Shown here: positions 47,020 to 47,478 of the stretch, in pieces
Layout of the letters: each line of letters begins with the position of its first letter
Numbering within the stretch: the first letter of the stretch is position 1
Origin: Gemmatimonadota bacterium
GTDB lineage: Bacteria > Gemmatimonadota > Gemmatimonadetes > Palauibacterales > Palauibacteraceae
Length of the DNA stretch: 64,000 bases
Assembly: GCA_049668445.1 (NCBI GenBank)
Contig: JBATJK010000179.1
Location: 10,567-74,566 of the forward strand
Direction of reading: 5' to 3'
Program-made: the position numbers and the translations under genes
Notes under the pieces: model-generated
The model's database searches: none
Told to the model about the DNA's origin: nothing
Seen by the model: the letters and a program-made list of their open reading frames with translations, nothing else

Positions 47020-47211
47020 CGCGCGTCGTCTGCGCCCTTTTGTTCACCGCCTTGGCTCCACTCTGCAACTCGGGCAGCAGGCCACGGAGACTGCGAGGCG
47101 GACTGCCTGCTTAAGAACAACTGCCTGACCGGGTCAACGAGTTGCATCTATGAGACAACGTGCGGTGGCGAGCCGTATTCGTGCTCCATTGCCAACAAGA
47201 AGGCCAACTAG
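47020..47211 (+). pseudogene. Decayed tandem copy of the downstream Cys-rich secreted peptide gene (start lost, frameshift between signal and mature parts)
   Basis: Mature-peptide-like frame DCEADCLLKNNCLTGSTSCIYETTCGGEPYSCSIANKKAN* ends at 47209-47211 and aligns with the intact copy. A signal-like remnant (VVCALLFTALAPLC) lies in a different frame with no ATG or RBS. Confidence 0.4.
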
Positions 47212-47268
47212 AGTCACAGTCGGTCCCCCAAGGACTATGCCAAGTGAGTCTCATAAAGGGAGGTTGCC

Positions 47269-47478
47269 ATGAGGAAGGTCCTCGTCGTTTGCGCACTTCT
47301 GTTCACCGCTCTGGCCATGTTCTGGGTGGCATCTATTCAGGCAGCAGACCAGGAGGATTGTGAGAAGCGGTGCCAGAGGATCAACGATTGCGAGAACGGA
47401 TCAGCAAGCTGTGTTTTTGAGACGACGTGTGGCACGGAGCCGTTCTCGTGCACTGTTCCGAGCAAGAAGGCCAACTAG
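47269..47478 (+). CDS. Small secreted cysteine-rich peptide (69-aa precursor, about 41-aa mature peptide with 6 Cys)
   Basis: Strong RBS GGGAGG 7 nt before ATG; signal peptide MRKVLVVCALLFTALAMFWVASIQAADQ; mature DCEKRCQRINDCENGSASCVFETTCGTEPFSCTVPSKKAN with a C-x3-C-x5-C-x6-C-x4-C-x6-C pattern; lies in the lower-GC islet. Confidence 0.6.
   Translation: MRKVLVVCALLFTALAMFWVASIQAADQEDCEKRCQRINDCENGSASCVFETTCGTEPFSCTVPSKKAN

Follow-up and report, generated by a model that had tools for sequence, protein, structure and literature searches.

The 64,000-nucleotide stretch of Gemmatimonadota bacterium DNA analysed here (assembly GCA_049668445.1, contig JBATJK010000179.1, positions 10,567 to 74,566; hereafter the window) carries a small cassette in which an intact gene for a secreted six-cysteine peptide is preceded by a decayed tandem copy of itself and followed by a gene for a propeller lipoprotein, which is probably co-transcribed with it (Table 1). 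An earlier note on this DNA, made from the letters alone, had described the duplication and its decay, and missed two further features: the conserved pairing of the peptide and propeller genes as a unit, and a long-range mRNA helix that brackets the peptide open reading frame (ORF). Related loci on other contigs are referred to by their L numbers.

Table 1. Features of the peptide-propeller cassette; positions are those of the window unless a contig is named.
Feature	Position	Strand	Remarks
RBS-equivalent site of dead copy	about 46999-47006	+	reads GGCAGCGG; GGCAGC where the intact copy has GGGAGG
5' part of dead copy	47010..47073	+	AAC (47010-47012) in place of the start; signal remnant RVVCALLFTALA in frame 0, 47022-47057
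Mature-domain frame of dead copy	47074..47211	+	45 codons plus TAG; reads AAGHGDCEADCLLKNNCLTGSTSCIYETTCGGEPYSCSIANKKAN*; open
Helix, 5' strand	47202..47234	+	core TCGGTCCCCCAAGGA at 47220-47234
Shine-Dalgarno sequence of intact peptide gene	47255..47263	+	AAAGGGAGG; ATG 5 nt further on; L001 counterpart AAGGGAGG
Intact peptide gene	47269..47478	+	69-aa pre-peptide MRKVLVVCALLFTALAMFWVASIQAADQEDCEKRCQRINDCENGSASCVFETTCGTEPFSCTVPSKKAN
Sec-type signal peptide, intact gene	47269..47343	+	MRKVLVVCALLFTALAMFWVASIQA; by sequence inspection; predicted cut after I-Q-A
Mature peptide plus stop	47344..47478	+	ADQEDCEKRCQRINDCENGSASCVFETTCGTEPFSCTVPSKKAN, 44 aa; predicted cleavage A25/A26
Helix, 3' strand	47489..47528	+	core TCGTTGGGGGACCGA at 47489-47503
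Propeller lipoprotein gene	47507..48568	+	353 aa; TTG start, aligned to ATG in L001; 28 nt past the peptide gene
Helix arms, window	47220-47234 / 47489-47503		15 nt, 12 perfect; 5' arm TCGGTCCCCCAAGGA
Helix arms, L001	1224-1235 / 1496-1507		12 nt, perfect; 5' arm TCGGTCCCCCAA
Helix arms, L012	309-323 / 601-615		15 nt, perfect; GCCGCTCAGTCTTTC / GAAAGACTGAGCGGC

The intact gene encodes exactly the peptide that the earlier note had quoted, behind the strong ribosome-binding site (RBS) AAAGGGAGG that it had pointed out. By inspection, the signal peptide comprises an MRK n-region and an 18-residue hydrophobic core, with I-[QR]-A before the cut in 3/3 orthologs; both the RBS and the signal peptide are conserved. 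The six cysteines of the mature part are spaced C-x3-C-x5-C-x6-C-x5-C-x6-C. The six-cysteine description stands, with the mature length amended by the predicted cleavage to 44 residues instead of 41 and the three disulfides being predicted. Net charge is about -3 for the window peptide and -2 to -4 across all versions, i.e. all are anionic. The most conserved part is the C-terminal half, C-x-[FYW]-ETTCG-x-EP-[FY]-SC ... [KR]KAN. Mature-part identity of the orthologs to the window peptide is 91% and 62%, and the comparison of the window with its L001 ortholog gives a proportion of synonymous differences (pS) of 0.62, a proportion of nonsynonymous differences (pN) of 0.06 and a dN/dS of 0.05. 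A single-sequence AlphaFold2 (AF2) model of the peptide is unreliable in the mature part (predicted local distance difference test score, pLDDT, about 45). Taken together, the sequence features suggest that the pre-peptide is exported by Sec, cleaved after I-[QR]-A and folded with three disulfides into a 44-aa anionic mini-protein. Within the peptide ORF there is also an 11-12-nt inverted repeat (CGAGAACGGATC / GAGCCGTTCTCG; window 47391-47402 and 47437-47448, L001 1396-1406 and 1441-1451), which is the same in the window and L001 though ~60% of the synonymous sites elsewhere in the gene differ, and which is absent from L012 and from the dead copy.

The upstream region can be aligned with the intact gene across some 250 nt, at a mean column identity of 79% (alignment A1). 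A tblastn search of the window with the intact peptide found only the intact gene and the upstream copy, the latter as two matches in different frames: residues 21-69 on 47062-47208 (E = 4e-12) and residues 6-16 on 47025-47057 (11/11 identical). The frame is shifted by an 8-nt deletion in the signal-peptide region, between 47057 and 47074, and both the start codon and the RBS are lost by substitution. The mature-domain frame stops 57 nt short of the intact ATG, and no ATG, GTG or TTG occurs anywhere from the stop codon before it to the one that ends it; the frame keeps 6/6 cysteines, with 25/45 amino acids the same as in the intact copy and 20/45 different. The same lesions are present on the independent JGI contig Ga0272441_10003317 (L016), which is 97.8% identical, ungapped, to window 38644..47210, and the state of the upstream copy is therefore biology and not an assembly error. 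With significant homology and disabling lesions side by side, the upstream copy is a dead paralog. The tandem duplication, the frameshift and the loss of ATG and RBS claimed in the earlier note thus hold up, and an upstream copy in frame with a valid start, which would have overturned its reading, is not there.

Could the upstream copy nevertheless be alive, through recoding by a programmed frameshift from the ATG at 46899 or through a non-canonical start? The open six-cysteine mature frame would fit this, as would ORF 46899..47114, the sole ATG-initiated ORF across the signal remnant, which crosses it in a different frame. We consider this very improbable: that ORF lacks an RBS and begins with a 40-residue non-signal N-terminus, the deletion truncates the signal peptide, and the copy is deleted in L001. 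Furthermore, the dead mature region of the window differs from that of L016 at 2 positions only, both second codon positions and both nonsynonymous, which is consistent with relaxed constraint (n = 2).

Two further observations concern the DNA just upstream. The DUF4340 gene at 45680-46617 holds 100/189 of the mismatches between the window and L016 (10.7% divergence, third positions mostly). Divergence is 0.1-0.5% in the neighbouring GldA/GldFG genes and 0% across the 456 nt that follow the DUF4340 gene, a pattern that looks like a recombination mosaic. Directly upstream of the dead copy lies a 68-nt non-coding element (window 46909-46974) with 84% identity to L011 1603-1670, which exceeds the 72.5% coding identity of the propellers; in L011 the element stands downstream of a propeller gene that has no peptide gene. 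It occurs once in the window, has no Rfam match and folds no better than shuffled sequence. It may be a promoter or leader of the upstream copy, hinting at a peptide gene beyond the propeller gene in L011, where the contig ends.

The divergence of the two copies informs their history. Over 45 aligned mature codons the paralogs show pS 0.60, pN 0.25 and omega 0.26, and over the 11 alignable signal-peptide codons there are 6 synonymous and 0 nonsynonymous differences. In L001 the upstream copy has been lost down to its last 11-14 nt (AGAAGGCCAAC), and the L012 lineage has one peptide copy only. Since pS is similar for the paralogs (0.60) and for the window/L001 orthologs (0.62) and pN differs, the duplication appears to date back at least about as far as the split of the window and L001 lineages. 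Both copies would have been under selection for most of their history, with the mature domain of the upstream copy diverging at about four times the rate of an ortholog and its signal peptide remaining fixed. The retained cysteines, the past constraint seen in omega and the synonymous-only signal codons indicate that the dead copy was formerly functional, and its inactivation was probably recent. The turnover typical of effector loci that the earlier note had proposed is compatible with these data, i.e. with an orphan, lineage-restricted peptide in a low-GC cassette, the deletion in L001, and a fixed signal peptide against 20/45 changes in the mature part.

The downstream gene encodes a protein that matches Pfam PF15869 (TolB-like six-blade propeller) with 37.2 bits against a cutoff of 29.2, over model positions 26-296 of 296; it also touches DUF5128, and every propeller homolog is precomputed as PF15869. 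It is a lipoprotein by sequence: the lipobox Cys21 at the end of the signal peptide is invariant across six aligned propeller homologs, and positions -3..-1 read AVG, AAG or LAA in the relatives and SVS in the window. The G-x-G-P-G-E and VFDW-x-G motifs are shared with distant members. An AF2 model (pLDDT 68, predicted template modelling score 0.71) matched NHL domains best in Foldseek (Brat and TRIM2/3, template modelling score, TM, about 0.5), and further down the list peptidyl-alpha-hydroxyglycine alpha-amidating lyase (PAL, 3fvz), Drp35 and the methylamine dehydrogenase heavy chain (2gc4). A search of 5.8 billion proteins returned three close relatives, at 89, 73 and 67% identity, and scans of 185,579 GTDB species representatives with the single protein and with a four-sequence alignment returned none. 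The propeller orthologs have a dN/dS of 0.08, with peptide and propeller orthologs at pS about 0.5-0.6.

Small cysteine-rich ORFs also stand beside two of the distant propellers. On L018, an unrelated ORF (125-337, 70 aa, 5 Cys, signal peptide) overlaps the start of P0009, a 30% identical propeller, by 4 nt; on L022, another unrelated ORF (1411-1584, 57 aa, 4 Cys, signal peptide) begins 11 nt past the stop of the DUF5128 protein P0012. A third distant member, on L020, has no such ORF alongside, and we take these cases as a lead, not a statistic. A literature search on PF15869, DUF5128, BF3164 and NVEALA yielded nothing useful, and a possible pairing of Bacteroides propeller genes with NVEALA peptides plays no part in the argument here.

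The peptide gene lies directly 5' of the propeller gene in 3/3 peptide-bearing lineages (the window; L001-L010; L012, L013, L015 and L017), and the co-occurrence of peptide and downstream lipoprotein that the earlier note had suggested checking is thus a strict adjacency. The cassette is roughly 1.4 kb long; its GC content is 55-60%, lower than the 63-68% of the flanking DNA, and 47198-48637 is the only part of the window homologous to L001. In the window it is preceded by GldA/GldF/GldG-like ATP-binding cassette (ABC) transporter genes and the DUF4340 gene and followed, on the opposite strand, by a fumarase gene; a DUF192 gene is also nearby. Elsewhere its neighbours are RadC in one lineage and HNH endonuclease and MacB/FtsX permease genes in another, i.e. 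the neighbourhoods are partly mobile-looking and differ in each lineage. Two minus-strand small ORFs with hydrophobic stretches, 48590-48769 (-) and 48842-48955 (-), lie between the fumarase and propeller genes; one has a GAGGAGG RBS ahead of a GTG, and the C-terminal AVWTL[GA]LALFGVFGE of the other is kept in L001 (2554-2754, minus), within the 69 nt of homology past the propeller stop.

The peptide family is an orphan and previously unseen. A word-indexed search of the same 5.8 billion proteins returned only P0001 (88% identity), and a HMMER profile search of 1.84 billion representatives returned the P0001 cluster and four other matches, which were rejected as spurious, being eukaryotic C2H2 zinc-finger linkers (TGEKPYxC) or repeat proteins. 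Note that CG-x-EP-[FY]-SC in the peptide mimics this C2H2 linker, giving marginal false matches (P0005, P0007 and P0008, E 4e-5 to 5e-4). Scanning JGI metagenomes with a degenerate DNA pattern for ETTCG-x-EP-[FY]-SC gave three further instances of the L012-type peptide (MKKLVIICSVLIVAFAMLWVSTIRAEHSEDCKKRCERVSQCEPGSTTCTWETTCGTEPYSCEVPNRKANSGDPE, with a 5-codon extension), besides the L016 strain and one chance match. No copy of the peptide turned up in two scans of viral contigs, and PADLOC models of anti-phage defence matched neither the peptide nor the propeller. In total, three lineages were found among the 1.84 billion representatives and the JGI metagenomes.

In all three lineages an inverted repeat joins the 5' untranslated region of the peptide gene with the peptide-propeller spacer. 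Its core lengths (12, 12 and 15 nt, for the 75 nt upstream of the ATG against the spacer) were reached in 0/5000 dinucleotide shuffles in each lineage, and the duplex energies were better than those of 500/500 shuffles. Minimum-free-energy folds of the whole 344-372-nt stretch contain 29, 15 and 23 long-range pairs in the window, L001 and L012, respectively, several of them G-U; pair probabilities are ~1.0 in the helix cores and lower in the outer pairs, with L001 reaching about 0.3 in its outermost ones. The arm sequences of L012 are unrelated to those of the window. In a MAFFT alignment of the three loci the 5' arms fall in nearly the same columns, and the 3' arm of L012 is misplaced because of the 5-codon extension of its peptide. 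The 3' strand of the window helix covers the propeller GGGGGA RBS (47494-47499), the TTG start (47507) and codons 5-8, and that of L001 likewise covers a propeller GGGGGA RBS; L011, which has no peptide gene, keeps the 3' arm alone, as the RBS region of its propeller gene. The outer segment of the window helix is built from the last 10 nt of the dead copy including its stop codon (47202-47211), which explains why L001 keeps just that remnant and why its homology to the window starts at 47198. A comparable bracketing repeat was looked for around the dead copy and not found.

We read the helix as an RNA-level device that would enclose the peptide cistron and set the peptide-to-propeller ratio. 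Perfect inverted repeats of 12-15 nt around a small gene in an accessory region might also bring to mind a role in the DNA, as recombination sites or the ends of a mobile cassette. Such a role is less likely, and in our estimate quite improbable, because the cassette has one orientation in 15/15 contigs (L001-L010, L012, L013, L015, L017 and the window), none of its adjacent genes is a recombinase gene, and the extended helices include G-U pairs, workable only in sense-strand RNA. The retention of the 3' arm in the peptide-less L011 also speaks against it.

The module resembles several known systems in part. Sec-dependent or disulfide-stabilised bacteriocins include enterocin P, lactococcin 972 and the defensin-like laterosporulin and actifensin. 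By inspection the small peptide carries an N-terminal Sec signal as these do, and it shares with them a cysteine-stabilised mature peptide of about 40-50 aa, a patchy accessory distribution and a partner gene directly downstream. It differs in being anionic, in having no sequence or motif similarity to them and no CSalpha-beta signature (CxxxC...CxC), and in its partner, which is a 353-aa propeller lipoprotein and not a small membrane immunity protein or an ABC transporter; the lipoprotein signals are consistent with a diderm host. A CSalpha-beta, defensin- or scorpion-toxin-like fold was rejected, the peptide having neither CxC nor a Pfam or PDB sequence match. An inhibitor cystine knot is defined by six cysteines in a knotted I-IV, II-V, III-VI connectivity; no knottin sequence match was found, and the search against knottin, defensin and inhibitor families that the earlier note had recommended gave no significant match (best WAP, E = 0.14). 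That note had also offered the product as bacteriocin-, toxin- or inhibitor-like or as the precursor of a ribosomally synthesised and post-translationally modified peptide (RiPP). The evidence is no proof of a toxin or bacteriocin role, and the anionic peptide is not a typical cationic antimicrobial. The RiPP idea is not supported: the signal is of the Sec type, and no RiPP maturase was found in the flanks (42.4-51.6 kb) or in the related loci, nor any peptide exporter family among the scanned flanking genes. RiPP precursors including SCIFF (six Cys in forty-five residues) were rejected on the same grounds, the peptide having a Sec-type signal and not a cytoplasmic leader, and no NCBIfam or Pfam match. 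No dedicated exporter or known immunity gene for the peptide was identified at the locus.

The heat-stable enterotoxins STa and STb of E. coli are made as pre-pro-peptides of about 72 aa, exported by Sec, given their disulfides in the periplasm and released via TolC/MacAB. The 69-aa precursor here is of similar size and has a Sec signal, its six cysteines may form three disulfides as in STa, and it may plausibly take the same route; it lacks a pro-region, its cysteine spacing is different and the two are not homologous. MacB/FtsX-type permease genes flank the cassette in the L012 lineage (L012 1728-3329 (-); L015 2009-2335 (-) and 214-1767 (-)), with an HNH endonuclease gene nearby. As MacB pumps export a periplasmic cysteine-rich enterotoxin in E. 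coli, this adjacency is by analogy a possible lead on export; only one lineage shows it, and permeases of this type may just be frequent in the genomes concerned. The propeller lipoproteins of PF15869 (TolB_like) and PF17170 (DUF5128) are mostly from Bacteroidota. The downstream protein joins them by a score above the gathering threshold, shared motifs and the lipoprotein cysteine, but its branch is very isolated, and family membership explains nothing about mechanism. A gene for a small exported cysteine-rich protein beside one for an exported beta-propeller also recalls the periplasmic quinoprotein dehydrogenases MauA/MauB and MxaI/MxaF, in which a small disulfide-rich subunit joins a propeller subunit. 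Here, unlike there, the peptide has no conserved Trp for a tryptophan tryptophylquinone cofactor, MauG-type maturation genes are absent, and the propeller is a six-bladed NHL-type lipoprotein, not a seven- or eight-bladed one. Finally, the periplasmic immunity protein Tsi1, a partial beta-propeller, neutralises its effector Tse1 by binding (PMC3391265) and is a loose precedent for a periplasmic propeller-type immunity partner. Tse1 differs in being a 150-aa amidase delivered by type VI secretion; neither homology nor type VI genes were seen here.

We tentatively favour, at a probability of roughly 0.4, an exported disulfide-rich effector peptide that works with the co-encoded propeller lipoprotein as its binding or protective partner. 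The reasons are the accessory, mobile context, the duplication, divergence and loss of a paralog, the conserved signal against a variable mature domain, the unequal translation signals of the two genes, the recurrence of unrelated cysteine-rich peptides beside related propellers and the Tsi1 precedent. The module would be a small accessory two-gene envelope unit. After Sec export and the cut after I-Q-A, the pre-peptide would be oxidised in the periplasm, and its conserved C-terminal half may form the surface that binds a protein target. The propeller lipoprotein would be the cognate partner that the peptide binds; most likely it would shield the producer or hold the peptide, much as an immunity protein does against an antagonistic effector. 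The helix could keep propeller translation low, tie it to ribosomes ending the peptide ORF, or serve as an RNase III processing site, and any of these modes would yield the peptide in excess. The upstream copy would have been a second, diverged functional variant that died recently, its 3' end now part of the leader helix.

Several points count against such an effector-partner pair. The peptide is anionic and matches nothing in Pfam, NCBIfam, PADLOC or PDB sequences; no homolog of known function turned up, and no way for it to cross the outer membrane could be identified. Its orthologs are under purifying selection (omega 0.05), unlike the usual arms-race toxins. The propeller model matches only generic NHL/beta-propeller folds, which give no functional pointer, and the six propeller homologs have no invariant His or metal cluster. 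The propeller of L011 (73% identical) has no peptide gene upstream, which suits an orphan immunity gene and equally suits a propeller working alone. The L012 helix ends 14 nt short of the propeller ATG and leaves the GGAGA RBS free, and RBS occlusion therefore cannot be the mechanism common to all lineages. Moreover, there are three peptide lineages only, which makes comparative statements thin.

The main rival, which we regard as unlikely, has the peptide and the propeller in a stable envelope complex with a physiological role, the peptide serving as a small subunit or a ligand and not as an antagonist. The strict adjacency of the two genes in every peptide-bearing lineage and the strong purifying selection on both would suit it, the 4-nt overlap of the L018 ORF with its propeller start suggests 1:1 coupling, and an anionic peptide does not look lytic. 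Against it, the L011 propeller has no peptide gene upstream, and the contrast between the strong peptide RBS and the sequestered TTG start of the propeller speaks for an unequal stoichiometry. The loss of the paralog fits a dispensable trait, as does the accessory, low-GC, mobile context, and neither a conserved Trp nor nearby cofactor-maturation genes point to a quinoprotein-like subunit.

Two other readings assign the peptide a different fate, and both strike us as improbable. The propeller might be a periplasmic enzyme acting on the peptide, either modifying or processing it, with a PAL-like lyase or some other NHL-fold catalyst as examples; the peptide would then be a Sec-routed RiPP-like substrate. 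The presence of PAL (3fvz) and the lactonase-type Drp35 among the fold matches and the conserved C-terminal [KR]KAN motif would be in keeping with this, but matches at TM about 0.5 are generic, the six propellers share no invariant His/metal triad, the peptide does not end in Gly, and the known RiPP maturases are absent from the scanned flanks and related loci. To our knowledge, Sec signal peptides are also atypical for RiPP precursors. Alternatively, the peptide might be a periplasmic or secreted inhibitor, for instance of a protease, with the propeller unrelated to its action or its target. As a small anionic mini-protein, presumably rich in disulfides and with a single strongly conserved loop, the peptide would suit such a role, and the resemblance to the WAP domain, very weak and below the cutoff, goes in the same direction; against it, no inhibitor family matches significantly and the conserved operon with the propeller gene stays unexplained.

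An effector with a propeller as its binding or protective partner also invites a broader idea, which is doubtful at present: TolB-like/DUF5128 propeller lipoproteins could together make up a so far unnoticed class of cognate partners, either immunity proteins or receptors, for cysteine-rich mini-proteins that are exported by Sec, evolve fast and are unrelated to one another. The window peptide would be one such new effector family, and the long-range helix around its cistron would set its output relative to its partner. At present the locus amounts to an orphan gene pair, well documented, together with a paralog that died recently, which is interesting and not surprising: the peptide family is new and has no detectable relatives, and a small secreted cysteine-rich peptide with a partner gene and a decaying paralog is of a familiar kind. 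The bracketing helix, which keeps its position while its sequence differs in one of three lineages, offers a natural example of long-range mRNA structure in a two-gene operon. If the effector-partner pair is true, the widespread PF15869/PF17170 propeller family would gain its first functional handle, and uncultured bacteria would have yielded a new disulfide-rich peptide scaffold.

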